This document shows, piece by piece, positions 13,741 to 55,587 of a DNA stretch of 64,000 nucleotides. The translations under genes and the position numbers were made by a program. The stretch covers positions 122,822,001 through 122,886,000 of the forward strand of contig OZ024744.1 in the NCBI GenBank assembly GCA_964016885.1. Direction: 5' to 3'. Within the stretch, counting starts at the first letter, position 1. The number at the start of each line of letters is the position of its first letter. Below the pieces are notes generated by a model. The model ran no database searches, had not been told where the DNA came from, and saw nothing but the letters and a program-made list of their open reading frames with translations. The DNA is from Eledone cirrhosa. Taxonomy: Eukaryota.

Positions 13741-16700
13741 TCTTTCTGTCTGACGCGTGAAACATCGCCGGTAAGATTTTTTCTAAATTTATATACGAAA
13801 AACAGAACAAATTGTTTGAAAAAACATATTATTTTGTAGATTAGCCCCCAAGCTGAATTGTCAGCTGGGTGGTAATCCCATTTTTCGCTCCTGTAGGGGC
13901 GAAAATTTTATTTTGAAAATTGTTTTAAAATATCAAATTTTACAAACTATAAAACATGAATAACACGAAGGGAACACTGGAGAATGTCAATAGAGAAAAG
14001 AGAGAGAAAGAGGCAGATATTAACGTTATATCTGCCTCTGCTACTATGAACGTCGCCATAGATACGACTGTCAACAAAGAGGAAAAAATGTTACCACTCG
14101 AAAATTGTACAATTTCTACCGTCGAAGCGAAGAAAAATAACACTAACTCACATGAAAACACAGAAATTAAACCTATTAACATACATACACATGAAAAAGA
14201 CATCAACAACTCCACAGATACATCTACACATAATGTTTCACCTCGTCAAGGAACTGAGATTTCCAACACCGAGGCTAACAACAACAAGAACAGCAACACC
14301 ACACAAAAAAAGAAAATGTCATTCGCTGAAACAGTGAACAAAAAACAAGATTTTATAAATCTTGATATCTCCAATGCAAGAGATATGCTCCAGCAAGGGA
14401 GAAAATTTGTAACTTTCGAAGAAAAAGGTGGGTTTAGAATTAACTCACCCCTTGAAATAAAGGAAGACACAGTGCGCAGATCAGTCACTTCTAGGACTGT
14501 GTCAAATTCCACAAGAATTCCACATTTGTTAGCCAAGCAGATATAGAAGCTACTTTCAAGGAAATTCTACCAAATATCGATTTTCTCCAACGAGGAAAAC
14601 AGTACGGAAGTGCTTCCGTACTGTTTAAAAGCGAGGTACTCGCCCAAAAACATTCTGTGACACCAATGGTGTCAAAAGCATTCACCTTTTTCCCTACATA
14701 CATTCGAAAAAGGACACAAAAATAAAAATAAAAAATATACCCCCAAACATTAACATCTGGCGGATCTTGGCTGGCTTTATAGAGCCAGAAACTGATATGA
14801 TTCTTTCGATACGAAAATCTATTCGACAAAGGTGGGCGGGTACTGATTTGGAGATTCTGTTGCAAATGAAATCGGAGAGAATCTCCAAAATATCCGAAAG
14901 AGTCGTCATCGATGATAACAACAAAATAAACATTTCGGTAGTAGGACGAACATTTCATTGCTTTCGCTGTGGTAGCATAGCATACCTAAAAGCCTCTTGT
15001 CCACAAACACACAACAACAACATCATTAGAAAAACACTATTACCAACACCAACACCAAAACAACCACCACCACCACAAGTACAAACGACAGACGAAACGA
15101 GCAACCACACCAAAACAAACAGACACTCAACCAACAACAACAGAAAAAACAGAGACAACACTCCTGAAGAACACAGCCCCATCCCATCCCACTCCATCAA
15201 ACACTACAACAAACACACCCACCGAAATACCACCACCACACAACATACCCCTACGCCACACACCTGACGATGATTATTCATCGACGGATGAAGCTGCTTC
15301 TCCTTTAAGTGAAGAATGAGAGCCGCGGAAATCTAAAAAAAAAGAGACACCACAAAACCCCCAAAACTCCAAACACCAACACCAACACACAACCACAGAC
15401 ACAAACAACAACACAAACAACACCACAGCCAAACATCCCCCTATCAGCAAAACCAACACCAACACCACCCCAAACACAAGCACCTACCATAAAAAGAAAA
15501 CTCCCGGACGAACAACAAACTAAAACAACACAACAAAAACACAAACAACAATACGTATACATCAACACAACAAGAATTTGATGGAGGTCATCTCCCAAAA
15601 CCCCAAGGTGGAGACGGAGGGCAAAACTTTCGTCATGGCAGAATCGTCTCCACAACTGAAACTTATAAGGGTTTCTATGGAAACCTATAATGACCTAAAA
15701 AATAAATTTTCACAGGACGTGGGCAACCCATCAACCGCGTCCTGTTAAAATGTTTCCCCACCCCACCCAGCACCCCATCCAACACCCAAATGGAGATTCA
15801 ACAATCCGATCTCCAGGAAACGAAAAGGTAAGTGCACCTTTCGTCCTTTTTCTCCAACTCTTCTTCACCAACATGGCTAGTTTACGAGTTGGAAGCGTGA
15901 ATGTGCGTGGCCTAGGGATACCCTGGAAACGGCCAACTTTTAAACGACCTTAGGTCACACGGTATGGATGTGATAGCCATCACCGAGTCCAGGATCCACA
16001 ACAGGCAGCAACTAACCCCTATCTTCAACAACTTTGAGATCTACGCATCTCTCTGTCAGCCAGGAGGTGGAGGTGGAGTGGCTGTTATGTTTCGGAAAAA
16101 CCTGGACGTCGAAGTACAGCAAGTACACTTGGACCCGGAGGGTAGACTGGTAGTCCTAGACGTGAACAGTATTGGAGGTGGAGCCTTCTGACTGGTGGCC
16201 GTTTATGCCCCGACCGGGCAATCGCAATCACGGCCAGGCTTCTTTAGGCGTCTAGAGTCTTTTCTGGGAACGTCTTGCTCCTTACTTTTAGTGGGGGACT
16301 GGAATGGTATCCTAGATGCACGATGGGACTATGTGGGAGCATGTCCCAGTAGAACGGGGTGCAACAGCCTCAAAACTTTAATCGGCCAATTCCAACTGGC
16401 CAATAGGTATCAATTGGATTTCCCGACTGCACCACAGTGGACGTGGGCAAACCGTAGCGGGACATCTAGATCGTATTTAGATAGGTTCTTCATTAGAGAA
16501 AGGGACAAGGAGATGTTAAGCTGGCCACGAATGCACATGGTTGCCTATTCAGATCACAAATTAGTCGTCTGCTTAGTCAACCGTGATAAGCACACATACA
16601 CAGGGACCCGGATACTGGAAGCTGAACGTGTCGTTGCCGGTACGTAAAGCTTACAGTGAACGGATAAGTAGACTAGTCAAGCAACAGTTAACGGGAGCCA

Positions 16701-19780: not shown

Positions 19781-21950
19781 AGCTACGACAACCTCCATCT
19801 CATGCGATACATCATAGAGAGGGTGGGTGTAAACCTGGTTTTGGTGGGGCTCTGATCAATTTAGATCAGTCTAGGGCATTTGATAGGGTCGACCATCAAT
19901 ACTTGGAAGCAGTTCTCAAGGCGGCCGGCCTCGGTCCCGTCTTCAGAGGCTGGATCGCTGCCATACACACCAGTATCTGCTCGGCAGTCAAGGTGAATGG
20001 CTACCTATCAGAGCCATTCCAAATCATGCGTTCCTTCCGTCAGGGGTGCCCTCTCTCCCCCAATCTGTATGTACTGACTCTTGAGCTGTTACTGCGGAAA
20101 TTGGAGCTGTTGCAGGGCATCCCGATCGAACCAGGACTGCAGAAAGCAGTGTTGGCCAATGCCGACGACATCACCGTAATGGTGTTGAAAACCTCGGAAA
20201 TCAGGGTAATAGGCAACCTATTACAGGAATATGAAACGTTGACAGGAGCAAGATTAAACCCAAACAAGTCTGTCGGTTTGCAACTCGGCACATGGAGAGA
20301 CAAACCCATGCCTTCCGACAGTGTCGTTGGACGCTGGATGGAAGGACCGGTGAAATTGCTCGAGGTCTGGTTCGGTCCAGACCTCCAGGTGGACAAGAAC
20401 TGGAACGAGGTCACGGCCAAGGTGTTTGCACTCACCCAGAAGTGGGCTGAGTGCAAACTCTCCTTGAAAGGTCGAGCGGAGGTGGCGAACACTTACATAG
20501 CGTCCGTCATCTACTACCGCTTGACAGTCGTGCCTTGCCCCCGCGAATACCTTACCAAAATGGAACGCCTACTCTTCAAGTTCCTCTGGAAGAAACAGGC
20601 TCCATTGGTGATGAGATCCATCTGCTGTCAACACCCTTCTAACGGAAGGCTGGGCATGCCGTAGCTGATGATGCGCAAACATGCGCTGAGGCTACGCCAT
20701 CACCATGTATTCCTGACCGGTGAACCGGTGTGGCTGTCGTTTGTGAGACGAGCTCTTCCACAACTCGTCTCACTAACAGAGCTGCAACCCTGGGTCAAGC
20801 GAAGACCGAAAATGGGTGTCTGTCACCTGGAGTGCCTACAGGCGCTCACAGCCCTCTACTAAGCGGAAACAGCAATCAGCGGAGACTCCACTTCGGCATT
20901 CTATAGGGGATTAGTGGAGGATAAGTGCGACGACGTTCTCTGGGAAACTCTAAGCATCGAGGAGGACGAACTGACCAGTCTGTTCGGGAGGACTTTCCGT
21001 CCAGGGCCTATGGATACCTTCCAGAGATCTCTGGCCTGGCAGTGTTACCAAGGAGCTCTACCAGTTCGAGACAAAATCTACAGGCACGGACGCCCTGGCA
21101 GAGATCCTGCCAAAAGTACCTGTCCAAGATGCGAGTAGGACAATGAAACCATTCTGCACGCAATTGTTCAGTGCCCAGGGGTGACCGACCTGTGGAATTA
21201 TGTCGAACAGCTGCTGTCACGTGTAGGACGCATCCAGTTGTCAGCCGAGTCCATCGTGACGATCACGCCGCCGCCTTCATTTAAGAACGAAGGAGGGGCG
21301 GTTTTTCCTCTGTCTGGTGGCTATGGCGAAAGAGGTAATATGGCGAACGAGGTTAAAAGGACTAAGGGCAAACACCTTTCTCTCCAGACAACAACGTATC
21401 CCCTTCTTTAAGTACCACTTCAGAAGGAAGGTGAGAGTGAAGAGAGAGGTGCTACACCCCAGTAAATTCGCTGAAAGGTGAATGTGGGTGAATGTAGCAA
21501 AAATGGCCCGAGTGAATGGGCCTTCTCTGTATATAAACCTGTAGGCGAGGAAGATAAACAGAGGGAAGACGGGAACACCTACAAAACGTGTTCCTTGTGT
21601 TGAGGGTTGTTCTATCCACGGGGTGTAAAACAATCCTGCAGTAACGTTCCCCTCTACTGGGGATTTCTATTGTTATTTTATTATATATAGTTTATTGTTA
21701 TTTATTATTGTTATTTATTAATGTTATAAAGGCAAAGTCAAATCCCGCTGAGGTTGACTTTGCCTTTCATCCTTACGGGGTCGATAAAATAAAGTACCAG
21801 TAATGCACTGGGTAATTGCTGGCCTTGTGCCAAAAAGTAGAAACAGTTATTTATTAATGTTATTTATCAAAGTTATTTTTATGTAAAACCCCCGCCGTCA
21901 CGTCTTGTAATGTCCCATTTTTGTACGCCACTGTGGCAAATAAATAAAGA
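19781..21950 (+). mobile_element. Tx1/L1-clade LINE E, 5'-truncated within RT, decayed, with a SINE in its 3' UTR
   Basis: Starts at DNLHLMRYIIER. RT fragment 19903-20664 (QGCPLS, NADD) and zinc finger CPRC. ORF2 stop at 21542-21544, AATAAA at ~21938. Confidence 0.93.
21728..21845 (+). mobile_element. 5'-truncated SINE with 18-bp target-site duplication and 5' fold-back
   Basis: GTTATTTATTAATGTTAT at 21710-21727 and 21846-21863. The empty site is visible in the paralogous 3' UTR at ~29365-29390. Confidence 0.9.
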
Positions 21951-23988: not shown

Positions 23989-26900
23989 TGGGATGGACAC
24001 ACGTGTTAAACTTGCTCGGAAAGTTTTGTTTAAATTTCTTTAGAAATTCCTCATTGTGAACTTTTATTTTTATACCAATTTGTAGAGGGACTGACAGGTC
24101 AAATTTTGATCTGGTCAGTCTCCCAAAACATTGTGCCCCTCAGGGCAAAAGCATCCAAAATATTTTTGAAAAAAAAAAAACACTTCAATTTTTTTTAAAT
24201 GGCTGAAGCAAAGGCACCTACTTCTTCGTCAAAACAAGATGGGAAGGGAAAGCCATGCCTACTTGACCAGCAGGTAGTACCAGACATGGACAAAGGAATA
24301 CCAACATTATCACCTCAACATTTAGAAGAGGAACAAGCTTCAGCTGCTTGTAAGCAACTGAACGCGCCTGACGTCACAAACGTCACATGTACCCACACAC
24401 AGAAGGAAGTATGTGTAGCAAATATACCACCACAACACAATAAATGAGAACAACAACACAACAAAAGGAATCAGTGGCAACACAACAAATGAGACCATCA
24501 TCACCACCGACAACAATACAATTTCATTTGCAGCAACACTTGCTAAGCAACAGGATTTTAAATACTACTCCATGGACATTTCCAAAAGGTCCCAATATTT
24601 GGAAGAAGCTCCCAACTATGTGACGTTTGAGGGAGACACTCCACACATACACATACAAGTAAGAGAAATGACACAGAAAAAGAAGCTAATTTGTAGAACA
24701 GTTGACATCACTACCAAAAAACCCATAACGCTCCCAACAAACACTATCGAAGCTGCACTAAAAGACATCAAGCCAGACGTGGCATACCTCCAAAGAGCTA
24801 AACAGTATGGAAATGTGTCAATGCTCTTTAAGAGCGAAACTCTGGCACAAAAACACTAGGTTCACCTAATAAAAACGGATCAACACATCTTCTTCCCCAC
24901 ATACATGGGAAGAAGATCCTACAAAATAAAAATAACCAGGATCCCAGCAGAGGTAAACATATGGTGGATCCTACGCTGCATCCTGAAGAAGGATGAGGAC
25001 ACCCTCCTATCTGTAGACAGGACAGACCGGTATAACTGGTTTGGAACCATCGAGGTTCTGGTACAAATGAGGCCAGAGAGAGTTGAGAAAATACTGGAGA
25101 GGATCGTCCTTGAGGAAGATGTCATCTCCATTTTAGTGGAGGGGAAAAGACCTCAGTGCCATAAGTGTGGGAAAATCACACACTTAAAGGCCTTTTGCCC
25201 TCTCTTAAACAAACCGAGGACAAACAAGGTGTTATTACCAACACCAAAACCCCAGCATCAACACTCCAAACCAAACACAACACAAACACCTGCAACATCC
25301 ACTCCCACACCACCACAGACCAGAGACAACCACACACACAAAATCCCACTGAAAAACCCTCCATTGCCTCTTCCCTCCCTGTCAAATACTTCCACAAACA
25401 CTCCACCACACAACATACCCCTCCCATCTCCCCCTGATTCAGAAGTCTCAGATACGGGAACCTCTACATCTCCAAGTGAGAATGAAGAGGAACCACAAAA
25501 AAGACACAAAAACATTTACAGAAAACACGCACACACCTAACCCCACCATAAACACACCGCCACAAACGACAAACACATCAACAACACAATCATCACCAAC
25601 ACAACCAAACATTTCAACAAAACAAACACCCACACCACCACAATCACAAACCCCAACCACAAAAAGAAAATTACAAACAGAAACAGTACACATAAAAAAC
25701 AAAACACACTACACATACATAAAAACAAGAAACAAAGAACTGGTGGAAACTGTCCGAAAGGACCCCACAATACAAACGGAAGGGAAAACCTTCCCCACGA
25801 ACGACCCACCCCCAAACCTCAAACTTATGAGGGTAACAACCCTACAGTATGAAACTTTAAAAGAGAACTTCCCACATGATGTGGGCCCCCCCTTGCCAAA
25901 AGCCCCTTAACCGTGTCCTGCTAAAAGGATTCCCTCCCTCCCCAAACACCACCAATCTGGACATGGAGATCGAACAACCCGACCCCCAGGAAACAAAAAA
26001 GTAAGTGTTCCTGCCTTTTCTCTCCTTAACTCTTCTTCACCATCATGGCAACTATACAAGCTGTATGTTTGAATGTACATGGCCTGGGCATGTGCTGGAA
26101 ACAGGGCCAGCTTTTAAATGATCTCAGGTCACATTGTATAGATGTGATAGCCAAACCGAGTCCAGGATTCACGACAAGCAGCAGCTAACCTCCATGTTCG
26201 ATGATTTTGAGATCTACGCAGGTGAAGGGGGAGTTGCTGTTCTGTTTCGAAAAAACTTGGATCTCAAAATACAGACGATTCACTTGGACCCGGAGGGCAG
26301 CCTGGTGGTCCTGGACGTCAATAGTAGTGAAGGTGGAGCTTTCAGACTGGGACATCGCGACCAGAGTTCTTCAAGCGTCTGGAGCCATTCCTGGGAACGT
26401 CTCGCTCCTTAGTGTTAGCGGGGTACTGGAATGGCATCTTAGATGCACGTTGGAACTATGTAGGAGCTTGTGATAATAGAGGGGGGTGTAATAGCCTCAA
26501 AAATCTCATCAGCCAATTCCAACTGGTTGATAGATATCGACTAGACTTCCCAAGTGCACCACTGTGGACGTGGAGAAACCGCACTCGGTCTTCTAGATCG
26601 TATTTAGATAGATTTTTAATTAGACAGAATGATAAGGAAACATTAAGCTGTCCACAAATGCACATGGTTGCCTATTCAGACCACAAATTAGTCACCTGCG
26701 CAGTCAACCTTGATAGAACACATAGACAGGGACCCGGATACTGGAAGCTAAAGATGTCGCCCCCGGCGCGTAAGGCCTACAGTAAACGGATCAGCACCTT
26801 ATTTAAGTGCCAGTTGACGGGGGCGATCGTCAACAACAGGTGGTGGAGCTCTCTCAAGAGAGCAATTAGAATAGAATCGTGGAGCTCTCTCAAGAGAGCA

Positions 26901-29468
26901 ATTAGAATAGAATCGATAGCGTTTAGCAAGGAAGTAGCTTTAGAAAAAAACAAAACTGAAAAGGAACTGGTAGCTAAAATAGAAGAGGCACTTAGGAATG
27001 GCAGTACAGCTGACGTGCTAGCGGCGAGAACGGCACTAGACCAGTTCTTCAACACGAAGGTTGTATTGTCAGAAGTAGAACACGTGCTCTAAGAAACGAG
27101 GGAGCCAAAGCTGTTAGCTGGGCCCGAGTGACAGAGGCGAAAAGTGGCAACAAATCCACAATTCGGTCTTTGCAAGACAAAGATGGACGCATTATACTTG
27201 AATCCAAGCAAATGTGCGCGGCCTTCCAGCAGCATTTTGCAAAACTGTTCGGGCAAAGCGGTACATCAAGCGAGGTGATGGACTTCAGCTCCTACCTCGA
27301 CGGCGTACCGCGACTCTCGAGCACGGATGCGGAGAGCTGCGAAAGGCCGATCACAGCGGGCGAAATAGAAGATGCCCTAGGCCGCTGCGGGAAACGCAAA
27401 TCACCCGGTTGAGATGGTCTGCCCTATGAGTTTTACATAGGCATGCTAGACTTGTTCTCTGGCGTCCTCGAAGCGGTTTACTGCAACTGGCAGCAGAACG
27501 GGAGGATTCCCAGTTCTGTAGGCAGAGGCGTAGTAACGCTGATCAGAAAAGATGAGAACAAGGGGGATGAGATAAGCAATTTCAGGCCCATAACTCTGCT
27601 CAACACAGAGTTAAATATTTTGGCCAAGGTGTTAGCAACAAGGCTGGCGCTTGTCGTCGAGAACCTGGTAGGGGAAGCCCAAACGTGCGCAATCCCGACC
27701 AGGTCATACACGAAAACCTCCACCTCATGCGATACATCATAGAGAGGGTAGTGTGTAAACCTGGCTTAGGTGGAGCTCTGATCAATTTAGATCAGTCTAA
27801 GGCATTCGAAAGGGTCGACCATCAATACTTGGCAGCAGTTCTCAAGGCGGCCGGCTTCGGTCCCGTCTTCAGAGGCTGGATCGCTGCCATGCACACCAGT
27901 ATCTGCTCGGCAGTCAAGGTGAATGGCTACCTATCAGAGCCATTCCAAATAAATGCGTTCCATCCGTCAGGGATGCCCTCTCTCCTCCATTCTGTATGTA
28001 CTGACTCTCGAGCTGTTACTGCGGAAATTGGAAATTGAAGGACCGGTGAAATTGCTCGAGGTCTGGTTCGGTCCAGACCTCCAGGTGAACAAGAACTGGA
28101 ACGAGGTCATGGCCAAGGTGTTTGCACTCACCCAGAAGTGGGCTGAGTGCAAACTCTCCTTGAAAGGTCGAGCGGAGGTGCGAACACTTACATAGCGTCC
28201 GTCATCTACTACCGCTTGACAGTCGTGCCTTGCCCCCGCGAATACCTTACCAAAATGGAACGCCTACTCTTCAAGTTCCTCTGGAAGAAACAGGCTCCAT
28301 TGGTGATGAGATCCATCTGCTGTCAACACCCTTCTAACGGAAGGCTGGGCATGCCGTAGCTGATGATGCGCAAACATGCGCTGAGGCTACGCCATCACCA
28401 TGTATTCCTGACCGGTGAACCGGTGTGGCTGTCGTTTGTGAGACGAGCTCTTCCACAACTCGTCTCACTAACAGAGCTGCAGTCCTGGGTCAAGCGAAGA
28501 ACGAAAATGGGTGTCTGTCACCTGGAGTGCCTACAGGCGCTCACAGCCCTCTACCAAGCGGAAACAGCAATCAGCGGAGACTCCACTTCGACAATCTATA
28601 GGGGATTAGTGGAGGATAAGTGCGACGACGCTCTCGGGGAAACTCTAGGCATCGAGGAGGACGAACTGACTAGTCTGTTCGGGAGGACTTTCCGTCCAGG
28701 GGCTATGGATAACTTCCAGAGATCTCTGGCCTGGCAGTGTTACCAAGGAGCTCTACCAGTTCGAGACAAAATCTACAGGCACGGACGCCCTGGCAGAGAT
28801 CCTGCCAAAAGTACCTGTCCAAGATGCGAGCAGGACATCGCAATTGTTCAGTGCCCAGGGGTGACCTGTGGAATTATGTCGAACAGCTGCTGTCACGTGG
28901 GGGACGCATCCAGTTGTCAGCCGAGTCCATCGTGAGGATCACTCCGCCGCCTTCATTTAAGAATGAAGGAGAGGCGGTGTTCCTCTGTCTGGTGGCTATG
29001 GCGAAAGAGGTAATATGGTGGACGAGGTTAAAAGGACTGAGGGCAAACACCTTTCTCTCCGGACAACAACTTATCCCCTTCTTTAAGTACCACTTGAGAA
29101 GGAACGTGAGAGTGGAGGGAGAGGTGCTACACCCCAGTAAATCGATGAAAGGTGGGTGAATGTGGCAAAAATGGCCCGAGTGAATGGGCCTTCTCTGTAT
29201 ATAAACCTGTAGGTTGAGGAAGATAAACAGGGGGAAGACAGGAACACCTACAAAACGTGTTCCTGGTGTTGAGGGTTGTTCTATCCACGGGGTGTAAAAC
29301 AACCCTGCAGTAACGTTCCCCCCCTATTGTGGATTTCAATTGTTATTTTATTAAATATAGTTTATTGTTATTTATTAATGTTAAAGTTATTTTTATGTAA
29401 AACCCCCGCCGTCACATCTTGTAATGTCCCATTTTTGTACGCCCCTGTGGCAAATAAGAAAGGTATCT
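23989..29468 (+). mobile_element. Tx1/L1-clade LINE G, full length but decayed, distinct ORF1 subfamily (ORF1 24199-26004, ORF2 26045-29212)
   Basis: Knuckle CHKCGKITHLKAFC. APE and RT fragments with a deletion removing YADD (~28035). 36-bp tandem duplication at ~26844-26915. Confidence 0.94.
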
Positions 29469-32400
29469 CTCTGCCTGACGCGTGGAACATCGCCGATAAG
29501 CTTTTTTTGTAAATTTCTATACAAAAAACTGAACTAATTGTTTGAAAAAACATATCATTTTGTAGATTAACTCCCAAGCTGAATTGTCAGCTGGGTGGTA
29601 ATCCCATTTTCCCAGAATTTAATTGAAAAATTGTTTAAAAAAATCAAATTTTGCCAACTATAAAACATGAATAACTCGGAAAGAACGCTAGAGAACATCG
29701 ACAGAGAGAAGAGAGGTAGAGAGGCAGATATTAACGTTATATCTGCTTCTGCTACTATGGACGTCGTCATGGATACGACTGTCAATAAAGAAAAAATAAT
29801 ATTACCACTTGAAGATTTTAAAATTTCAAAAAAAAAAAATGTCTTTCGCTGAAACAGTGAACACAAAACAAGATTTTATAAATCTTGACATCTCCAATGC
29901 AAGGGATATGCTCCAGCAAGGGAGAAAATTTGTAACTTTCGAAGACAAGGGTGGGTTTAGAATCAACTCACCCCTCGAAATAAAAGAAGAGACGGTCCGA
30001 AGGACAGTGACCTTCAGGACTGTCTCAAACACAACGAGAAAGCCAATATTTGTGTGAGTCAAGGAGTCATAGAAGCCACCTTGAAGGAGATTCTAGAAAA
30101 TATTGACTTTCTTCAACGAGGAAGACGGTACGGAAGTATTTCCATACTGTTTAAAAGCGAGGCACGCGCCCAAAAACATTCTGTGACACCAATGGTGTCA
30201 GAAGCATTTACCTTTTTCCCTACGTACATGGGAAAAAGGACACAAAAAATAAAAATAAAAAATATACCACCAAACATTAACATCTGGTGAATCTTGGCTG
30301 GCTTCGTAGAGCCAGAGACTGATGCTATTCTTTCGATATAAAAGTCTATTAGACAAAGGTGGGCGGGTACTGATTTGGAGATTCTTATGCAGATCAGGCC
30401 GGAAATAATCTCCAAAATACCGTAAAAAGTCGTCATCGATGACAACAACAAAATAGACATTTCGGTGGAGGGGCGTAAACCTCACTGCTTTTGCTGTGGT
30501 AGCACAATACACCTAAAGGCCTCCTGTCCTACACAAACACAACACAACAACATCATTTAAAAAAACACTATTACCAACACCAACACCAAAACAACCACCA
30601 CCACAAGTACAACAACAGACGAAACGAGCAACCACACCAAAACAAACAGACACTCAACCAACAACAATAGGAAAAACACAGACAACACCTCTGAAAAACA
30701 CAACCACACCCCATCCCACTCCATCAAACATTACCACAAACGCACACACTGAAACACCATCACCACACAACATTCCCCTACCCCACACTCCTGACGATGA
30801 TCATTCATCGACGGATGAGGCTGCTTCTCCTTCTTTAAGTGAAAAAGAACCTCAGAAATAAAAAAAAAAAAAAAAAAGAGACACCCCAAAACCCCCAAAA
30901 CTCCAATCACCAACACCAACACACAACCACAGACGCAAACAACAACACAAACAACACCACAACCAAACCTCCCCCTACCAACAAAACAAACACTAACACC
31001 ACCCCAAACACAAAAAAGAAAACTCACAGACGAACAACAAACTAAAACAACACAACCAAAACAAAAACAACAATATACATACATCAACACCAACAATAAA
31101 ATTTTAATGGAGATCATCTCCCAGGACTCCAAAGTGGAAACTGAGGGGAAACTATTTATAAAATCTGACACTGCACCACACCTCAAACTAATAAGGGTTC
31201 CGGTAGAAACCTACCAAAAACTAAAGAGCAAATTTTCACAGGACGTTGGCAACCCATGCCCAAAACCAATAAACCATGTCCTGTTGAAATGTTTCCCCAC
31301 CCACTCAACACCCCCACCAAAACTGAAATGGAGATCGAACAACCCGATCTCCAGGAAACGGAAAGGTAAGTGCATCCTTTCGTCCTTGTTTTGCCAACTC
31401 TTCTACACCAACATGGCGGATTTACGAGTTGGAAGTATGAATGTGCGTGGCCTAGGGATGCCATGGAAACAAGGCAAACTCTTAAACGACCTTAGGTCAC
31501 ACAATATAGATGTGATAGCCATCACCGAGTCCAGGATCCACAACAGACAGCAGCTGACCCACATCTTCGACGACTTTGAGATCTACGCATCTCTCTGTCA
31601 GCCAGGAGGTGGAGGGGGAGTAGCTGTCATGTTTCGGAAAAACCTGGACATCGAAATACAGCAAGTACACTTGGACTCGGAGGTTAGACTGGTTGTCCTA
31701 GACGGGAACTGTATTGGAGGTGGAGCCTTCAGACTGGTGGCCGTTTATGCCCCGACCGGACAATCGCAATCACGGCCAGACTTCTTTAAACGTCTAGAGT
31801 CTTTTTTGGGAACGTCTTGCTCCTTACTTTTAGTGGGGGACTGGAATGGTATCCTAGATGCACGATGGGACTATGTGGGAGCATGTCCCAGTAGAGGGTG
31901 CTACTCTCTCAAGAAAGCAATTAGAGTAGAATCGATAGAGTTTAGCAGAGAGTAGCCTTAGAAAAAAACAGAATAGAAAGAGAACTAGTAGCCAAGGTAG
32001 AGGAGGCACTTAGAAGTGGCAACGCGGCTAGAGTGTTAGCATCGAGAACAGCACTAGACCAGTTCTTCGATGCGAAACAAAGAAGGCTGCGTGGTCAGAA
32101 GCAAAACACGTGCTCTGCGAAACGAAGGAGCGAAAGCAGTCAGCTGGGTCCGAGTGGCGGAGGCAAAAAGTGGCAACAACTCCACGATTCGGTCTTTGAA
32201 AGAGCAAAACGGACGCGTGTTACTTGACCCCAAGCAAATGTGCGCGGCCTTTCAGCAGAACTTTGCGCGACTGTTTGAGCAGAACGACTGTGAGCCGAAC
32301 GGGGCAATGGACTTTAGTTCATACCTCGACGACCTGCCACGTCTCACGAACACGGACGCCGAGTTCTGCGAAATACCGATCACGGACACTGAGGTACGGG

Positions 32401-35948: not shown

Positions 35949-38854
35949 TACATGGGAAGAAGAACACACAAGATAAGGGTGTCACAGATCCTACCGAACA
36001 CCAACATTTGGTGGATCCTGGGTGACTTTTTGGAGGAGGGTAAAGACACCCTCCTCTTTGTAAAGAAGTCAACCAGGTATAACTGGAATGGGACTTCAGT
36101 GGAACTCCTGGTCCAAATGAGACCAGACAGAATCTCAAAAATACCCGAAAGGGTACCTGATGATAACAACCACGTTACCAACATCACAGTGGAGGGCAGA
36201 AAACTACAGTGTTTTAAATGTGGAAAAGACACACACATAAAAGCATTCTGCCCAATGCTGAACACACAGAAACCAAACACCCAAACCTCAACAGCAACAC
36301 CTGAAAACAAAAAAAAACGCAACCCCAAACCATCAACATCCACCCCACCATCACAAACCTCAAAAGACACCACACCAAAAGTTCCCCTGAAGGACTCTGT
36401 CCCACCCCTTCCCATTATGTCTAACACTCCCACAAACATTCCACCACCACACAACACCCCCCTCCCATATACCCCCGATGATAACACCTCAGACGCGGCA
36501 ACCTCCTCATCTCGAAGTGAGGATGAAGAGGAACCCCAAAGGTCTAAAAAACAAAAAAAAAGACACCACAAAAATACAAAAGTACCAATCACCAACAAAA
36601 CACACAGACATCACCACAAATGGCAATCACACCAACAAGACAGACACCACCACAAGCACAAATGCCCACCATCAAAAGAAAATTAGACAACAAACAGAAA
36701 CATCACAGCAAAATACCAAACCACACTACATACAATAACACCACAAATAAAAACCTAATGGAAGCCATCACTAAAGAGCCCACCATTCAGAAAGAAGGGC
36801 AAACCTTCACAAACACAGCACCACACCAAAAACTAATAAGACTACAAACTGAAACTTACAGTTTTCTTAAAGAAAACCTTCTCCACGATGTTGAACCCCC
36901 GTGCCAAAAAACCCTCAACCGTGTGCTACTAAAACGTTTCCCCACCCCACCAAACACCACCATCTCCACCAACATGGAGATCAAACAACTCCACCTCCAG
37001 GAAACTAAAAGGTAAGTGTTCTGCTTTTTTCTCTCCATAACTCTTCGTCACCAATATGGCAACTGTACGAGTTGGATATTTGAATGTGCATGGCCTGTTG
37101 ATGTCCCGGAAACAGGACCAATTTTTAAATGACCTCAGGCCACACTGTACAGATGTGATAGCCGTCACTGAGTCAAGGATTCATGACAAGCAGCAGTTAA
37201 CCCCCATGTTTGATGACTGTTCTGTTCGATGACAGTTCTGTAAGCAGAGGCGTAGTAACGCTGATCAGGAAAGACGAGAAGAAAGGAAATCCATAAGCAA
37301 TTTCAGGCCCATAACTCTGCTCAACAGAGTTGAAGATTTTGGCCAAGGTGTTAGCAACGAGGCTGGTGCTTGTCGTCGAGAACCTGGTGGAGAAGCACAA
37401 ACGTGTGCAATCCCGACCAGGTCCATACACGACAACCTCCACCTCATGCAATACATCTTAGAGAGGGTAGGGTGTAAACCCGGCTTCGGTGGAGCTCTGA
37501 TCAATTTAGATCAATCTAAGGCATTTGATAGGATCGACCATCAATAATTGGAAGCGGTTCTCAAGCCGGCTGGCTTCGGTCCCGTCTTCAGAGACTGTAT
37601 CGCTGACATGCACACCAGCATCTGCTTGATAGTCAAGGTGAATGGCTACCTATCGGAGCCATTCCAAATCATACGTTCCATCTGTCAGGGATGCCCTCTC
37701 TCCTCAATTTTGTATGTGCTGACTCTCGAGCCATTACTGCAGAAGCTGGAGCTGTTGCAGGGCAACCCAATCGAACCAGGACTACAAAAAGCAGCGTCAG
37801 GCTATGCCGATGACGTAACCGTAATGGTGTCGAAAACCTCGGAAATCGGGGTAATCGGCAACTTATTACAGGAATATGAAACGTTGACAGGAGGAAGACT
37901 AAACCTGATCAAGTCTGTTGGTTTGCAACTCGGCACATGGAGAGGAAACCCATGCCTTCCGACAGTGTCGTTGGACGCTAGATGGAAGGACCGGCGAAAT
38001 AGCACGGGGTCTGGTTTGGTCCAGACCTCCAGATTGCGAAAAACTCTCCTTAAAAGGTCGAAGGAAGATGGCAAACATTTACATAGCGTCCATCATCTAT
38101 TACCTCTTGACAGTCGTGCCTTGTGCCCGTGATCACTTCACCAAGATGGAGCATCTTCTCTTCAAGTTCCTTTGGAAGAAACAGGCTCCGTTGGTGAGGA
38201 GATCCATCTGCTGCCAACATCCTTCTAATGGAGGCCTGGGCATACTGTGGCTGATGATGCGCAAACACGCGCTGAGGCTATGCCATCTCCAGGTATTCCT
38301 GACCTGCTAACCAGTGTGGCTGTCGTTTGTGAGACGAGCTCTTCCACAACTTGTCTCGCTAACAGAGCTGCAGTCCTGGGCCAAGTGAAGACCAAAAATG
38401 GGTGCCTGGCATCTCCAGCGCACTCAGGCGCTCACAGTCCTCTGTCAGGTGGACACGGCAGTCAGCAGGGACTCCACGTCAACATTCTATGGAGGATAAG
38501 TGCGACAACGTTCTCGGGAGACTCTAGGCATCAAAGAGGACGAATTGGCCAGTCTGTATGGGAGGACTTTCCATCCAGGACCTATGACTAACTTACAGAG
38601 GACTCTGGTCTGGTAGTGCTACCGAGAAGCTCTACCAGTTTGAGACAATATCTACAGGCATGGACGCCCTGGCAGGGATACTGCGTAAAGAACCTGTCCA
38701 AGATGCGAGTAGGACATTGAAACCATTCTGCCCGCAATTGTTCAGTGCCCGGGGGTGACCGACCTGTGGAATTATGTCGAACAGCTACTGTCACGTGTGG
38801 AACACATCTGGTTGTCAGCCGAGTCCATCGTCAGGATCACACCTTTCCTGTACC

Positions 38855-42500: not shown

Positions 42501-43032
42501 AAGTGAGAAAGGGTCACTTACCTTGATCGTGTGGTGAAGGGACAGTAGAACCGTCCCTTTCGCTGGTCATGGGTGTTTCCAAGAGGATGTCAGTGTATAT
42601 CCTCTTGGTAACCGACCCTCTGAAGTCTCCAACTGCGTTGGGGAATTTTTGTTTTAAAGGTTTGTACTATTCTATTTTGATTTCAATGATGCTTATGTTT
42701 GTCGGGAGAGTTCTTGGTGTTGGTGGGGTGTAGTAGTTTTTTTCTGTAATGTCTGTGTGCTGCTTTATATATTGTATGAGTTCTTTTTTTGCTATGTTTA
42801 TGGCTGTGTACTTTTTGGGGGAGGGGTGATTTTGTTGCTGTTTTCTTCTTGTTGCTGTTTGGTGTGTGTGTTTTGTTGTGTTTGCGTTGTTGGTGTTTTT
42901 GGTGATGCTGGTGGTGGTGTGGTTGTTGTTGTCAGTGGTGCTTGTGGTGGTAATGGTGGTGGTGTTGCTGCAAGTTTCTTTGCTGCCTTTACCCCTCTTT
43001 GTATGCCTTCGCTTTTGGAGGGTGAATCTAAG

Positions 43033-45562: not shown

Positions 45563-45766
45563 AATAATAATAATAATAATTGTTTCTACTTTAGGCACAA
45601 GGCCAGCAATTACCCAATGCATTACTGGTACTTTATTCTATCGACCCCGGAAGGATGAAAGGCAAAGTTAACCTCGGCGGGATTTGAACTCAGATCATAC
45701 AGGGAGGTAACTCTATGCTTCAAAGCATGGCATCCGATCCTCTACCGATACTGCCAATCCACCGCC

Positions 45767-45824: not shown

Positions 45825-46084
45825 TTTCTTTATTAACCACAAGGGTTTACATAAAGTAGACATTAAGGACAGTGCAGGACAATGCAGGACGGTACAAATG
45901 GGCATTTCTGCGTGTAAAAAAACAAAAACAGAGGATGTAACAAAAATAACAATGAAAATAACAATGAAAAATTCCCCAATAGGGGGGAGACTTCGGAGGG
46001 ACATTTGTGGAGAAAGCCCAGTAAAAAGCCACAATGACCCTGACCACCAAGGCAAGTGCCCTCTCCCAGTTTTCCACCTTTAGT

Positions 46085-49000
46085 TTACAGATATATACTC
46101 AGAGTCGGCCCATTCACTCGGGCCATTCTTGCTTCTCTCACCCATCTTTCAACAAAATGCTGGGAAGAGAGCACTTCCTTCTCTACTCTGATTTTCCTTT
46201 TCAAATGAAATTTGAAAAAGTCAATCAGAGCATCACCGAAGAGGTAAGTGCTCGTCTTCAGCCCTTTCAAACGTGTCCACCATACTATCTCTTTCGCCAT
46301 GGCCACCAGACAGATAAAAACTGCCTGCCCTTCCCGGCTAAAGGAGGAGGGCGGGGCAATCCTCACGATAGACTCAGATGATAGCTGGATCCGTCCTAAA
46401 CGCGACAGCAGGTGTTCGACATAAACCCACAAGTCAGTAATTTTCGGACACTGGACGAGTGCGTGCAGGACGGTTTCGTCGCCCTGCGCGCATCTCGGAC
46501 ATGCCCGGCTGACGGCACCTCCATGCCTGTAGAGTTTATCCCGAACTGGCAAGGCTCCTCGGTAGCACTGCCAGGCCAGAGATTTCTGGAAGTTGTCCAT
46601 AGGCCCTGGCCCGAAAGTTCTTCCGAAGAGATTGGCTAGTTGATTTTCGTCGACGCCTAGAGTTTCCCCAAGTACGTCGTCGCTCTTCCCCTCCACTAAT
46701 CCTCTATAGAACGCCGAGGTGGAGTTTCCACCGATCACATTGCCCGATTGGTCGAGGGCTGTGAGCGCCTGAAGACATTCCAGTCTCCAGGCGCTCCCTC
46801 TCGGTCTTCGCTTGACCCAGGACTGCAGCTCCGTCAAGGAAACGAGCTGGGGAAAAACGCGTCTAGCAAACGGCGACCACACCTGATCACCGTCGAGGAA
46901 GAGGTGGAGATGTCGTAGCCTGAGCGCGTGCCTGCGCATCATCAGCCACGGCATGCCCAGCCCTCCACGTAGCGGGTGTTGACAACAGATGGACCGCCTG
47001 ACCATCGGAGCACGTCCCTTCCACAAAAAGCGAAAGAGCAAACGCTCCAGCGCAGTCAGGCGAGGCTTAGGACAAGGTACGACGGTTAGGCGGTAGCAGA
47101 TGACAGACGCGATGTACGCGTTAGCCACCTCCGCTCGACCTTTCAAGGATAGCTTCCTCTCCGCCCATTTCTGGGTGAGAGAAGCCACCCTGCTCGTCAC
47201 CTCGTCCCAGTTTTTGTCCGTCTGGAGGTCCGGACCGAACCAGACCCCTAGCAATTTAACCGGTCCGTCCGTCCAGCGCCCGACGACGCTGTTGGACGGC
47301 ATGGACCTGCCTCTCCAGGTGCCGAGCTGCAGGCCCACTGACTTTTCCTGGTTGATCATTGCTCCTGTCACCGCTTCGTATTCTCTTAGTGTAGTGCCGA
47401 TCGCCTCGATGTGTTTGGCGTTCGACACCACTACGGTGACATCGTCCGCATATGCTGACACGGATCTTCCGCATCCTAGTTCGCGCGGGACTCCCCTCAA
47501 CGTCTCCAGTTTGTGCAGTAATGGCTCGAGAGTCAATACGTACAAGAGGGACGAGAGGGGACATCCTTGGCGGACCGAGCGCATGATGTTGAACGGTTCC
47601 GACAGGTGACCGTTCACTCTCACTACAGAGCAGATGTCGCTGTGCATGGCAGCGATCCAGCCTCTGAAGACGGGCCCAAAGCCAGCCGCCCTCAGGACTG
47701 CCGCTAGGTAACGATGGTCGACCCTATCGAAAGCTTTCGACTGATCTAAATTGATCAAGGACCCACCCGTGCCAGGTTCCCTAGCTACCCTCTCTACGAT
47801 GTATCGCATGAGGTGGAGGTTGTCGTGGATGGATCTGTCGGGAATGGCGCATGTCTGCGCCTCTCCCACCAGACCACCAACGACAAGCGCCAACCTCTTT
47901 GCTAGCACCTTGGCCAAAATCTTAAACTCTGTGTTTAGCAGAGTTATGGGCCGGAAATTGTCTATGTTATCCCCCTTGTTCGGATCCTTTCTCAGCAGTG
48001 CCACCGCTCCTCGGCTCACAGAACTGGGAATTCTCCCGTTCTGTTGCCAGTTGCAGTAGACGTCCGCTAAGAGGCCTCCGAACAAGTCTGGCATCTGTAC
48101 GTAAAGTTCATAGGGAAGACCATCCAAACCAGGCGATTTACCCCTTGTGCAGCCAGTCATTGCCTCCCTTACTTCAGCGGCTGTTATCGGCTTTTCGCAA
48201 CACTTCGCCTCAGTGGCCGAGAGCCGCGGCAGTCCGTCGAGGTAGACACTAAAGTCCATCCCTCTACCCGGCCCCCCGCTGCCCCCGAACAGCTGAGCGA
48301 AGTGTCGCTGAAAAGCTTCACACATTTGCCCGGGATCGAGTAGCATGCGCCCGTCGTGGTCCACCAAAGACCGGATCGTGGCTTTGTTGCCACGACGCGC
48401 CTCCGCCACTCGGGCCCATTGAACGGCTTTCGTCCCCTCGTGTCTGAGAGCACGCACCCTAGCTCTGACAACGCAGCCTTCGTGCTTTGCATTGAAGAAT
48501 TGGTCAAGGGCCAATTTCGCCGCAAGCACGTCGGTCGCAATGCCTTTGCTAAGCGCCTCGTCTAATTTTCTAACTAGTTCTCCCTCTGCTCTATTTTTCT
48601 CTATTGCTAAAGCCTTACTAAACCTAATCGATTCTATTCTAATCGCTCTTTTCAGAGCAAACCACCACTTGTTGTTGACGATGGCCCCCGTCAACGCCCG
48701 CTTAACTAGTTCGCTAATCCGGTCTCTGTAGGCCTTGCGCGCTGGTAAGGACGCGTTTAGCTTCCAGTAGCCGGGTCCTTGTCTATGAAGCCTATCTAAG
48801 TCAAGCACACAGGTCACGAATTTGTGGTCCGTGTAGCTGACTATCTTGAATTGTGGACAGCCTATGCTAGACCTATCTATTTCCCTACAAAATACTCTAT
48901 CTAGATATGATCTGGATGACCCTATGCGGTTTGTCCAAGTCCACATTGGCACATTCGGGAAATCCAATCGGTACCTGTCAGACAGTTCAAAACGCCTGAG

Positions 49001-49504
49001 CAGGTTGGTGAGGCTCTTGCACCCTCCACCCCTATCCGCTAATCCCACACAGTCCCAGCGTGCATCTAAGATCCCGTTCCAGTCGCCCACTAACACTAAA
49101 GAGCGCGACGTTCCAAGAAAGGTCTCCAGACGCCGGAAGAAATCAGGCCGCCCTGCTCCTGTCGGGGCATAGACGGCCACTAGCCTGAAAGCTTGCCCGT
49201 CTCCGCTGGTCACGTCCAGCACCACCAGCTTACCCTCTGGGTCCAGGAAGATGGCCCGTATGGCGAGATCCAAACCTCTCCGAAAAAGTACAGCAACTCC
49301 TCCACCGGATCCAGGACGGCTGGGAGATGCGTACACATCGTAGCCGCCGAAGATCGGTGCGAAGGCCCGTGCTTCGGAGATTCTGGTCTCGCTGATGGCC
49401 ACTACATCTATGTTTAGTGACCTGAGGTCGTTGAGCAGGTGACCCTGCTTCCATGACGACCCCAAGCCACGCGCATTTATGCTGCCTATTCTGAGTGAGG
49501 TCAT
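46085..49504 (-). CDS. ORF2p, 1139 aa: APE endonuclease + reverse transcriptase + C-terminal CCHC zinc finger
   Basis: GSINARG, ISETR, GDWN, YLDR, TDH (APE); KSPGLDG, FRPITLLN, DQSKAFDRV, QGCPLS, YADD, LLGV (RT); CPRCAQGDETVLHALVQC. Confidence 0.97.
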   Translation of the reverse strand: MTSLRIGSINARGLGSSWKQGHLLNDLRSLNIDVVAISETRISEARAFAPIFGGYDVYASPSRPGSGGGVAVLFRRGLDLAIRAIFLDPEGKLVVLDVTSGDGQAFRLVAVYAPTGAGRPDFFRRLETFLGTSRSLVLVGDWNGILDARWDCVGLADRGGGCKSLTNLLRRFELSDRYRLDFPNVPMWTWTNRIGSSRSYLDRVFCREIDRSSIGCPQFKIVSYTDHKFVTCVLDLDRLHRQGPGYWKLNASLPARKAYRDRISELVKRALTGAIVNNKWWFALKRAIRIESIRFSKALAIEKNRAEGELVRKLDEALSKGIATDVLAAKLALDQFFNAKHEGCVVRARVRALRHEGTKAVQWARVAEARRGNKATIRSLVDHDGRMLLDPGQMCEAFQRHFAQLFGGSGGPGRGMDFSVYLDGLPRLSATEAKCCEKPITAAEVREAMTGCTRGKSPGLDGLPYELYVQMPDLFGGLLADVYCNWQQNGRIPSSVSRGAVALLRKDPNKGDNIDNFRPITLLNTEFKILAKVLAKRLALVVGGLVGEAQTCAIPDRSIHDNLHLMRYIVERVAREPGTGGSLINLDQSKAFDRVDHRYLAAVLRAAGFGPVFRGWIAAMHSDICSVVRVNGHLSEPFNIMRSVRQGCPLSSLLYVLTLEPLLHKLETLRGVPRELGCGRSVSAYADDVTVVVSNAKHIEAIGTTLREYEAVTGAMINQEKSVGLQLGTWRGRSMPSNSVVGRWTDGPVKLLGVWFGPDLQTDKNWDEVTSRVASLTQKWAERKLSLKGRAEVANAYIASVICYRLTVVPCPKPRLTALERLLFRFLWKGRAPMVRRSICCQHPLRGGLGMPWLMMRRHALRLRHLHLFLDGDQVWSPFARRVFPQLVSLTELQSWVKRRPRGSAWRLECLQALTALDQSGNVIGGNSTSAFYRGLVEGKSDDVLGETLGVDENQLANLFGRTFGPGPMDNFQKSLAWQCYRGALPVRDKLYRHGGAVSRACPRCAQGDETVLHALVQCPKITDLWVYVEHLLSRLGRIQLSSESIVRIAPPSSFSREGQAVFICLVAMAKEIVWWTRLKGLKTSTYLFGDALIDFFKFHLKRKIRVEKEVLSSQHFVERWVREARMARVNGPTLSIYL

Positions 49505-49536
49505 GTTTAAAATAGAGTGGAAAAGATGGGAAAGAC

Positions 49537-49544
49537 CACTTACC
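49537..49544 (-). promoter_or_regulatory. Putative 5' splice site / U1-binding site G|GTAAGTG overlapping the ORF1 stop (also 55585-55592 and 61633-61640)
   Basis: CG|GTAAGT fits the donor consensus. The same motif overlaps the ORF1 stop in C, G, H, I and J. Function is inferred. Confidence 0.65.
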
Positions 49545-51636
49545 GTACTTTTGGTAGAGGAGGGATGGTTTTTACATCCCTTTTCACTTGATCGTCTGGT
49601 GAAGGGACCGTTGAATCGTCCCTTCGGCTGGTCGTCGGCTCTTCTAAGAGAATGTCTGAGTATACTCTTCGATTGATGGTTCCTCCTAGGTCCCTGAAAT
49701 CACCAACTGCGTTGGGGAATTTCGTTTTAATATTTGTGTATTGTTTCTGTGCTATTTTTAGCAGTCTTATGTTAGTTGGCGTTTTGATTGGTGCTGGTAT
49801 TATGTAGTCCTGTTGTGAAATGTCTGTGTGTTCAATTATGTAAGTCATTAGTTTCTTGTTGTGTGTATTTATTGCCGTGCATTTGTTTTTCTGGGGGTGG
49901 GGTGTGGTTCTACTATTTTCTTGTCGTTGTTGCTGGGTGTGTGTGTTTTGTTGTTGTGTTTGCGATGTTGGTGCTTGTGGTGGTGGTGTTGAAGGTGTTG
50001 TTGGCGGTGGGGTTGTCGCCGGTGGTGATGGTGGCGCTAGTGTGGGTGGTGATGGTGTTGGTGTTGTTGCTGCTGTGGGTCTCTTTGCAGTAGACTTTAC
50101 CCTTTTCTCATTTCTTTCCTCCCTTTTCAAAGGCGACGATGCGCTGCTTCTGCGTTTGTGCCTTCTTACGACCTTTTGCCATCTCTCTCCCACCTCACAC
50201 TCCATGTCTGATTCTGTGAGGTCGGGGAGGGGTACCAACTCCACTCTTTCACTTGTTGTTGTTGGTGATGTTTGCACTGGAGTCTCTGTTGCAGCTGCAT
50301 TTGGTATTGCTGTTGTTGTTGTTAGTATTTCCACTGCTGCTGCTGTTTTTGATTTCCGTGGAGTGGGTATGGGTGCCACGGGCCTATCGTTCCTGGTTGC
50401 CGCTTGTCCTGTTGCTGGTAGCCGTGGAGCCGGATTCGGAAGGAGGGGGGTTTTCTCCTTTCTCAGGGTCTTCTCGTTGCAGAAGGCCCTGAGGTGAGTC
50501 TTCGATCCACAGCGAAAGCATTTCGGGCGTTTGCCCTCAACACTTATGGGCAGTTGAGTGCCGTTATCGAAGTCTATCACATCCGGGATAGCTTCGATGC
50601 ACTCCTGGTTGGTTTGGATTAGCATCTCAATGGAGGAGCCGACCCAATCTTCTCTTACTTTTTTCTGTACTTGCAGTACAGTTGTTTTGTCCTCGATTCC
50701 GACGAGGACAGACGCGGCCAGCCAAGAAGGGGTCATTCCGGGGGGGACGTGGGTCAGTTTGACCCTCACAATTTTTTGCCCACAGTAGGAGGGCACCAAC
50801 ACCATTTCCTCGCTCCTTAGGGTCACTACTGATTGGGCCTTTGCCTCCTGGGGTGTGGCAAAAAGTACGTCTACGGTGGCATATTTTTTGCCTCGGGTGA
50901 TGTGCGTTTTCCGCTGCCACACAGACCCCAAGGCCTTTTGTATTTGGGCCTCTGTGGCTCTTTCCACCCTACGGGATTTTGTACTTACTGTACGGTACGT
51001 GACCGTACAGTGCTCTTGGGTTTCGAAAAAATTTTTCGCTGCCTTGCAGATTGCTCGGTGTCCGTTCTTTGTCACCATCTTCTTCGCTTCCTCTAATTCC
51101 TCATTTGTTATGAGGATTGTTTCCAAGTTTTTCGCAATACCTGCAAATGAGATTGGTTTTTCTCTGCTGTTGTTGTTGTCGTCAGAGCTGCTGGTACTTT
51201 TGTTGTTGCTGCAGGTACTACGACTACTGCCTCCGCCGCTGTTGCTGTGGTTGTTGTTGGTGTTGCTGCTGCTAATGCTGTTGTTGTTTATGCTGCTGGT
51301 GATGCTGTTGCGGCTGCTACTGTTGTTTTCATTGTCACTGTTGCTGTTGTTATTACGGCTGCTACTGCTATTATTCCTGACGTCAGACGAATGAACTGGG
51401 TTTTCGTATTTCCCGCACACCTGTTTCGTCGCTGTCGTCGTCGTCGTGGAGAAACCTTGCACGCTTTGCACGAGACTTTTCTTTTCTTTCGTCGCTTGTG
51501 AAAGAGAAGGGAGGGAGAGAGACACATTTAAAGAAGGGAGGGAGAGAGACAATCTTCTCTCTGCTGTAGTGATGATTGAGGAAGAAGAAGACGGAATGAG
51601 TGGGAGTGACGTATGAAATTTCTTTTTCGTAGCCAT
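49540..51636 (-). CDS. ORF1p, 698 aa, nucleic-acid-binding protein (N/S-rich N-terminus, RRM-like region, CCHC knuckle, P/T-rich linker)
   Basis: ATG in AACATGG context at 51636 (the track start is an upstream TTG). Knuckle CFRCGSKTHLRAFC. Confidence 0.93.
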   Translation of the reverse strand: MATKKKFHTSLPLIPSSSSSIITTAERRLSLSLPSLNVSLSLPSLSQATKEKKSLVQSVQGFSTTTTTATKQVCGKYENPVHSSDVRNNSSSSRNNNSNSDNENNSSSRNSITSSINNNSISSSNTNNNHSNSGGGSSRSTCSNNKSTSSSDDNNNSREKPISFAGIAKNLETILITNEELEEAKKMVTKNGHRAICKAAKNFFETQEHCTVTYRTVSTKSRRVERATEAQIQKALGSVWQRKTHITRGKKYATVDVLFATPQEAKAQSVVTLRSEEMVLVPSYCGQKIVRVKLTHVPPGMTPSWLAASVLVGIEDKTTVLQVQKKVREDWVGSSIEMLIQTNQECIEAIPDVIDFDNGTQLPISVEGKRPKCFRCGSKTHLRAFCNEKTLRKEKTPLLPNPAPRLPATGQAATRNDRPVAPIPTPRKSKTAAAVEILTTTTAIPNAAATETPVQTSPTTTSERVELVPLPDLTESDMECEVGERWQKVVRRHKRRSSASSPLKREERNEKRVKSTAKRPTAATTPTPSPPTLAPPSPPATTPPPTTPSTPPPQAPTSQTQQQNTHTQQQRQENSRTTPHPQKNKCTAINTHNKKLMTYIIEHTDISQQDYIIPAPIKTPTNIRLLKIAQKQYTNIKTKFPNAVGDFRDLGGTINRRVYSDILLEEPTTSRRDDSTVPSPDDQVKRDVKTIPPLPKVR

Positions 51637-51686
51637 GTTGTTTTTTTGTTTAAAATGAAATTTTGGGTACAAAACCCCAATAACTG

Positions 51687-51753
51687 GTTATTTAACCCCG
51701 AAGGGCCAAATAACGGACAGAAAGACCCCTCTCACGAGGAGGAGGGTGTCTTT
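51687..51753 (-). promoter_or_regulatory. 5' UTR tandem RNA hairpins, including a 12-bp stem capped by c(UUCG)g
   Basis: GUUAUUUGGCCC-UUCG-GGGUUAAAUAAC, with two G.U pairs possible only in the sense RNA. Preceded by the stem AAAGAC..CCCUC../..GAGGGGUCUUU. Confidence 0.6.
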
Positions 51754-55552: not shown

Positions 55553-55587
55553 GTTTAAAATAGAGTGGAAAAGATGGGAAAGACCAC

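Follow-up and report, generated by a model that had tools for sequence, protein, structure and literature searches.

ORF2 of Tx1-like LINEs in Eledone cirrhosa as a possible helix-gated, mostly retained intron

The second open reading frame (ORF2) of a group of LINEs in Eledone cirrhosa may be a helix-gated, mostly retained intron, in which a predicted, co-varying helix has the acceptor-like sequence at the ORF2 stop in one of its arms and covers a splice donor at the end of ORF1; the probability of this reading is put at roughly 0.45. Its computed basis consists of the conservation of the donor, the complementarity and co-variation of the helix arms, two chimeric elements joined at the donor, and the lack of ORF1-only copies in the searched families, and from these we infer the timing of U1 access, the competition between helix and spliceosome, and minority splicing. 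The predicted co-evolving helix would gather the stop of ORF1, the donor, both ends of ORF2 and the 3' UTR into a single structure, through which splicing, reinitiation at ORF2 and cis-preference could all be controlled. The window, that is, the whole stretch of 64,000 nt analysed here (contig OZ024744.1, positions 122,822,001 to 122,886,000), belongs to a genome of 3.0 Gb, and its relevant features are collected in Table 1.

Table 1. Features of LINE copies bearing on the proposed intron (window coordinates)
Feature	Position	Strand	Remark
ORF2 end with acceptor-like site; TAG stop 29210-29212, then G	29188..29214	+	rank 5 of 269 AGs, 1.3 bits (lineage F2)
3' arm of predicted long-range helix: last ORF2 codons, stop, purine-rich 3' UTR start	29195..29278	+	duplex of -66.8 kcal/mol with 25976-26059; best partner along the element
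5' arm of predicted helix: ORF1 end, donor, pyrimidine spacer, ORF2 ATG (26045), first codons	25976..26059	+	pairing computation
Donor GTAAGT overlapping ORF1 stop of the 29212 copy; weak -1 A there	26001..26006	+	
Degraded ORF2 of the 29212 copy: frameshifts, internal deletion	26045..29212	+	
Donor GTAAGT at ORF1 stop, copy with ORF2 15873-19145	15828..15833	+	
Donor GTAAGT at ORF1 stop; ORF2 end of the same copy without TAG	31366..31371	+	
Donor GTAAGT at ORF1 stop; ORF2 of the copy 3'-truncated	37012..37017	+	
Donor GTAAGT of element J; phase 1, ORF1 stop two codons on	42516..42521	-	
Intact ORF1, young family; 698 aa, CCHC knuckle	49540..51636	-	
Chimera join inside ORF1: J-type ORF1 to its donor position, then second family from CAG 43 nt upstream of that family's donor	49586..49587	-	
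Donor GTAAGT overlapping ORF1 stop of the intact unit; again at 55591 and 61639	49538..49543	-	
Intact ORF2; 1139 aa, APE endonuclease, RT, zf-RVT; TAA end, no AG at stop	46085..49504	-	
3' arm of predicted helix, intact unit; approximate ends, partner ~49490-49568	46030..46104	-	
Strong acceptor-like site in 3' UTR of the intact family: T tract plus CAG ending at 45908	45908..45935	-	rank 1 of 266 AGs, 8.6 bits

From about 12.7 kb onward the window is a cluster of LINE copies sitting in simple repeats. The preceding part (1-12671) is a 12.7-kb (AGTAACAACAAC)n-type satellite with a strong strand bias, the source of long spurious ORFs, and it is adjoined by a LINE 3' end truncated 34 nt ahead of its stop (12716). 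At the window end (45850-64000) lie three 6,048-bp head-to-tail LINE units, which differ by 5 and 0 bases and run on into the right flank; similar tandem runs were found across C1 of the same genome, and the tandem units may have arisen either by insertion into the tail of the previous copy or by assembly duplication. The ORF2 of the intact unit contains an APE endonuclease (PF03372), a reverse transcriptase (PF00078) and a C-terminal zf-RVT domain (PF13966), with human L1 ORF2p as its best PDB match (E 1e-52). A separate ORF1 lies upstream, whose CCHC knuckle (C-X2-C-X4-H-X4-C) was read directly; its product gave no Pfam hit, and no homologue of it, with a spliced tail or otherwise, was found in a protein search of 7,991 candidates. 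Long low-complexity Ser/Asn/Thr/Pro stretches occupy both sides of the knuckle. By their sequence the elements are classed as L1-group, Tx1-like LINEs.

In most copies, as judged by eye and uncounted, the LINE 3' ends pass into ATT or TATC repeats, a preference for simple-repeat targets. A SINE-like short repeated element recurs in or beside the LINE tails (12850-13030, 21730-21845 and 45580-45760). Beyond the helix arm, the 3' UTRs of all families (e.g., 29320-29460) carry conserved blocks, namely a hairpin-like C-run/TATT/G-run motif, a T-rich tract and a TGTCCC...GTGG motif immediately 5' of AATAAA, which are likely the tail recognised by the reverse transcriptase.

For comparison across the genome, an ORF2-start pattern that ignored both splice motifs was used and gave 7,598 matches. 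The sample of 118 copies comprised 80 of the first 100 listed matches (the first 40 chosen for diversity), 30 intact copies and 8 copies from the window and its flanks; 92 of the 118, with a full-length ORF2 span, formed the tree set, and 26 truncated or deleted copies were left out. The sampled copies fall into 14 families with 68-90% ORF2 identity, and 17 representative lineages were obtained by splitting three families in two, adding L099 and omitting the recombinant L256. The latter (G000:C1:18929830-18934130) combines the ORF1, donor and ORF2 start of one family with the 3' end of the young family, to which the intact units belong. All splice-site scores derive from general-knowledge consensus matrices rather than from matrices fitted to the introns of this genome. 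A first metagenome scan for relatives gave no matches, and a second returned 80 loci at 22-48% identity. Among these distant L1/Tx1-like loci, which lack the donor/TAG-G arrangement, a donor-like hexamer was seen by eye upstream of ORF2 in at most 1 of the 38 loci having an ORF2 start, and of 22 complete ORF2s seven have TAG as their stop, one of them with G next. A relative at 42% identity was absent from the E. cirrhosa genome itself (best 44%).

A donor-like site (GTAAGT, GTGAGT, GTAGGT or GTAATT) lies at the ORF1 end in every lineage, followed by a pyrimidine spacer of 25-52 nt, and it is kept in both phases, with the stop either within the motif (phase 2) or two codons later (phase 1). 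Scored by the consensus matrix, it is the top GT among 209-259 in 16 of the 17 lineages and second of 109 in L099. Parsimony counted 0 changes at positions +1, +2 and +6, 1 at -1, +3 and +5, 3 at -2 and at most 2 in the other donor columns, compared with 2-7 in the columns on either side and an average of 2.46 for third codon positions; the donor was chosen by taking the best-matching site no more than 70 nt from the ATG, a choice that favours conservation, and the site always coincides with the ORF1 end as well. The donor on the ORF1 stop is strongly conserved, and because two chimeras are joined exactly at it, it was likely used in splicing. Protection by U1 from premature polyadenylation was considered as its sole role; with only 0-2 poly(A) hexamers per copy in ORF2, this explains the donor poorly.

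The two chimeras join the exact donor position of one parent to a CAG located 43 and 23 nt, respectively, upstream of the donor of another family. In the family of the intact units, similarity to J-type ORF1 is 0.77-0.82 over the 60 nt up to the exact J donor position (vs 0.53-0.55), and beyond the join the similarity to the second family is 0.77-0.81. L089, a single copy, shows the same kind of switch at the donor of another family, with identities of 0.82-0.92 vs 0.53-0.55; further upstream it is closer to the group of its downstream parent, indicating a more complex history. The chimeras may have arisen by template switching rather than splicing, as the AG is the sole sequence common to both sides at each join; two exact matches to donor positions favour splicing. 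Both joins used a CAG in an ORF1 end and bypassed the AG of the ORF2 stop, which counts against the helix-gated intron. Splicing at the donor appears to have founded the young family of the window, with its 1,200-plus copies, and if so, splicing is a route of ORF1 exchange among LINE families. Read-through of tandem arrays offers a route to such a join.

The acceptor-like appearance of the ORF2 stop was the starting point of the analysis. In the window, the seven plus-strand stops originally described as a CC(T/A)TCTCT(C/G)T run followed by CCTGTAG and G were all confirmed (12716, 13475, 19145, 19544, 21544, 23734 and 29212), as were the CTGTAG-T end of element J and the AG at 46079-46078 of the intact units, where ORF2 ends in TAA and the AG lies beyond. 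These seven stops are homologous copies and not independent events. A donor in cis is available to only two of them, the stops at 19145 (donor 15828) and 29212 (donor 26001); the other five copies are 5'-truncated and lack an ORF1 of their own. In the plus-strand copy ending near 34200 the TAG is absent. In element J (minus strand, ~39870-39920) the ORF2 end and the first UTR bases are tandemly duplicated with a 27-nt period, which produces two TAG sites.

Across the genome, TAG is the ORF2 stop of 15 of the 17 lineages and of 79 among 99 distinct ends, all 20 TAA ends carrying the 3' end of the young group, and a YAG is the automatic consequence of a TAG stop. By the consensus matrix the AG at the stop ranks 1-5 of about 260 AGs (1.3-4.6 bits) in 10 of the 15 lineages having it and 14-29 in the other five; the site is absent in two of 17. 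In clade A the pyrimidine fraction before the stop falls to 0.45-0.65, and the polypyrimidine tract is not preserved independently of coding and pairing, as it co-varies with the ORF2 start. As judged from sequence scores, the site would be a weak acceptor, and it is doubtful whether its motif exceeds chance. The lineages without a stop AG have their rank-1 acceptor in the 3' UTR, the best of the whole set (7.3-8.6 bits; 45908 in the window). Sister families read CAC or TAC at this position, and L099 has both the UTR site and the stop AG. Since weaker T-tract-plus-AG sites also occur in the 3' UTRs of TAG families, the UTR acceptor of the young family may be due to chance. An AG 7 nt 5' of the stop, with which phase-2 donors would retain the stop of ORF2 in frame, was also considered and left out of the count; it pairs with ORF2 codon 2 and reads AAG in several families.

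Joining the donor to the ORF2 stop would lead, in the donor's own phase, to a stop within two codons in 9 of 14 lineages; it fails in the other five, among them the family to which the 29212 copy belongs, whose product would gain 27 residues. This pattern rests on about five independent tree blocks, has a rough estimated p of ~0.2, which is not significant, and is confounded by pairing.

The pairing itself was computed with a query from 25 nt before the donor through ORF2 codon 5. This 5' arm finds its best partner in the ORF2 stop region in all 17 lineages, at -57 to -81 kcal/mol compared with -46 to -60 elsewhere, and the duplex has z-scores of -4 to -10 against mononucleotide shuffles. Pairing within a lineage beats pairing swapped between lineages in 134 of 136 lineage pairs (pairs that are not independent of one another), and the same holds for the sub-helices of ORF2 start and end (129/136), spacer and UTR (127/136), and donor and UTR (122/136); two internal ORF2 controls gave 59/120 and 55/120. 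Whole-region RNA folds (3.7 kb) contained the helix in four of four cases and included the stop region in three; in the remaining one, the young family, the donor was paired over long range and the stop region locally.

The register of the helix is fixed: the ATG and its upstream context pair with the final codon of ORF2, its stop and the two nucleotides that follow. Most pairs at positions -7 to +2 around the stop are formed in 15-17 of 17 lineages, and the A of TAG stands unpaired opposite the A at -3 in all 17. Spacer position -5 is paired to the nucleotide that follows the stop in 15 of the 17 lineages, and in the young family this pair changes from C:G to T:A (post-stop G to A, spacer C to T). 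Since the stop pairs in register with the ORF2 start, most of its acceptor look is also the complement of that start, and the conservation of TAG-G and of the pyrimidine run is probably accounted for largely by this pairing. The predicted helix would close ORF2 into a 3.4-kb loop and cover the donor on the ORF1 stop.

The genome was searched for products of splicing. The intact family has 1,226 copies with an unspliced donor and no spliced copy, and the direct donor-to-ORF2-end junction pattern of this family matched nowhere in the genome. When positions +1 to +3 of the donor were replaced in the pattern by all alternative letters, 7, 2 and 3 matches resulted, all of them point changes or a small spacer deletion. 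Junction patterns for four further family groups also gave 0 matches each, with about 570, 1,270, 840 and 670 full-length copies expected to match both junction halves (scaled from a non-random sample); F5, F6, F9, F11, F13 and F14 lay outside this search. Among 94 distinct 3' ends in the sampled DNA none begins at the stop AG. An ORF1-only copy would need just ~300 nt of reverse transcription to retain its junction. No donor-to-ORF2-end joint occurs among the matches listed for contigs of the sequencing runs X1, X2, X5, X6 and X7, and the donor is traversed without splicing in contigs of X5, X6 and X7; these runs may be DNA, and their contigs weigh neither for nor against splicing. The predicted junctions were thus not recovered by the pattern searches of the genome, and the proposed mobilisation of ORF1-only RNA in trans has left no genomic trace in the tested families. 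Given cis-preference (PMC5860796), the missing retrocopies are compatible with some splicing, and not with trans mobilisation at a visible rate.

These results suggest the following path for the helix-gated intron. As the donor is both kept and hidden, it must act before being hidden, and U1 could reach it while ORF2 is still being transcribed. Once the 3' arm emerges, the helix would compete with commitment of the spliceosome and mostly win, yielding full-length transposable RNA. A minority of transcripts would be spliced to the AG of the ORF2 stop, or in the young family to the CAG of the 3' UTR, and would supply extra ORF1 protein; having no ORF2p in cis, such RNA would almost never be copied back. 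The same helix would, in cytoplasmic RNA, mask the start codon of ORF2 as well, until unwound by a ribosome that reaches the end of ORF1. The low acceptor scores, poor in 5 of 15 lineages, count against this model, as does the failure of the junction patterns to recover an ORF1-only copy.

A different use of the same helix is on balance unlikely, though a serious contender: it may serve translation and cis-preference, hiding the ORF2 AUG until ORF1 ribosomes open it and holding the ORF2 stop beside the 3' UTR, with TAG-G being solely the complement of the ORF2 start and the donor either binding U1 or splicing rarely to cryptic sites. The fixed register around the stop, the co-variation of start and end codons, the lack of ORF1-only copies in the genomic junction searches, the bypassing of the stop AG in both chimeras, and a most active family without any AG at its stop all agree with it. 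It leaves unexplained why the consensus donor persists across changes of phase and in places where the helix leaves it partly unpaired, and ORF2 offers little poly(A) signal for U1 to suppress. The two readings are not mutually exclusive. The form originally predicted, in which efficient splicing takes out ORF2 as precisely one intron and abundant ORF1-only RNA can be mobilised in trans, is improbable. What stands of it is the conserved, strong donor with its two chimeras, a stop AG that ranks among the best downstream sites in one clade, and the stop regenerated in part of the lineages; against it are the absence of spliced copies in the intact family and in the four further patterns, the burial of both splice sites in the predicted helix, the missing AG at the intact stop, and a TAG-G and pyrimidine conservation owed largely to pairing.

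Descent of all motifs from one ancestor as a coincidence is very improbable as a general explanation. A single ancestor for all families is suggested by their ORF2 identity, and the distant relatives lack the motifs; yet donor columns change far less than their neighbours and third positions, co-variation exceeds the controls, and the chimeras join exactly at the donor. Inherited coincidence is largely refuted for donor and helix, and may hold for the acceptor alone. An intron of 42-60 nt, composed of the donor, the pyrimidine spacer and an AG in the first ORF2 codons and fusing ORF1 to ORF2, is scarcely credible and was rejected: the intact family and several others do have an in-frame AG, but it is missing in the copies at 26045 and 31413 and in the L102-type family, and such RNA would transpose in cis, yet no copy of this kind exists beside the 1,226 unspliced ones.

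A general question about LINEs is how a single bicistronic RNA yields far more ORF1p than ORF2p, and another is how ORF2p recognises the RNA that encodes it. More tentatively than the helix-gated intron itself, we propose a reverse transcriptase gene that is a spliceosomal intron between two stop codons, with a co-evolving helix of ~80 nt per arm across 3.4 kb switching between ORF1-only mRNA and full-length RNA, and with the same donor occasionally splicing into the next tandem element and swapping ORF1 between families. In phage MS2, a long-range helix couples replicase translation to coat translation. The Eledone element would resemble it in that pairing over a distance masks the start codon of the second gene until ribosomes translating the first one expose it; MS2 is a bacterial RNA phage without splicing, and the likeness is an analogy only. 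HAL1 elements are ORF1-only L1 derivatives, and the predicted spliced product would likewise consist of ORF1 and the 3' UTR; in the tested families no such copies were found.

Kibi and Koshi are microsatellite-targeting non-LTR retrotransposons of the Tx1 clade/L1 group (PMC4494074), and the Eledone elements share with them two ORFs, an ORF2 with APE endonuclease, reverse transcriptase and zf-RVT, and insertion in microsatellites. The donor on the ORF1 stop and the predicted ORF2-closing helix set the Eledone elements apart from the Tx1/L1 elements of the searched literature. A further source lists 13 L1-Tx1 families in one table, and splicing is unmentioned in its main text (PMC13282606). In the literature searched, mostly outside subscription journals, no LINE was found described with ORF2 as an intron, with an ORF2-closing helix or with a conserved donor on the ORF1 stop. 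Human L1 SpIREs lose 5'UTR or 5'UTR/ORF1 sequence, keep ORF2 and make up ~1.8% of full-length insertions (PMC5860796). They would have in common with the Eledone case a LINE RNA with working splice sites, the possible genomic fixation of spliced RNAs and a cis-preference that limits RNAs lacking a protein; the proposed Eledone junction differs in having no genomic copy in the searched families, and the Eledone donor looks selected.

A precedent for this logic is EVD, a Ty1/Copia element of Arabidopsis, in which splicing yields a subgenomic gag RNA, the full-length RNA remains dominant, and donor quality weighs more than acceptor quality (PMC5580714). In both systems the structural gene ends in a strong 5' splice site that is conserved, and there is an RNA for the structural protein only, demonstrated for EVD and proposed for the Eledone LINE, and EVD is distinguished by its LTRs, a single gag-pol frame, a short intron and premature termination (PMC5580714). 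The Ty1/Copia gag system is a working analogy of which the Eledone LINE is no member: the latter is a non-LTR element with two ORFs, whose putative intron would be the whole enzyme gene, with the 3' UTR kept and a predicted helix as the gate.
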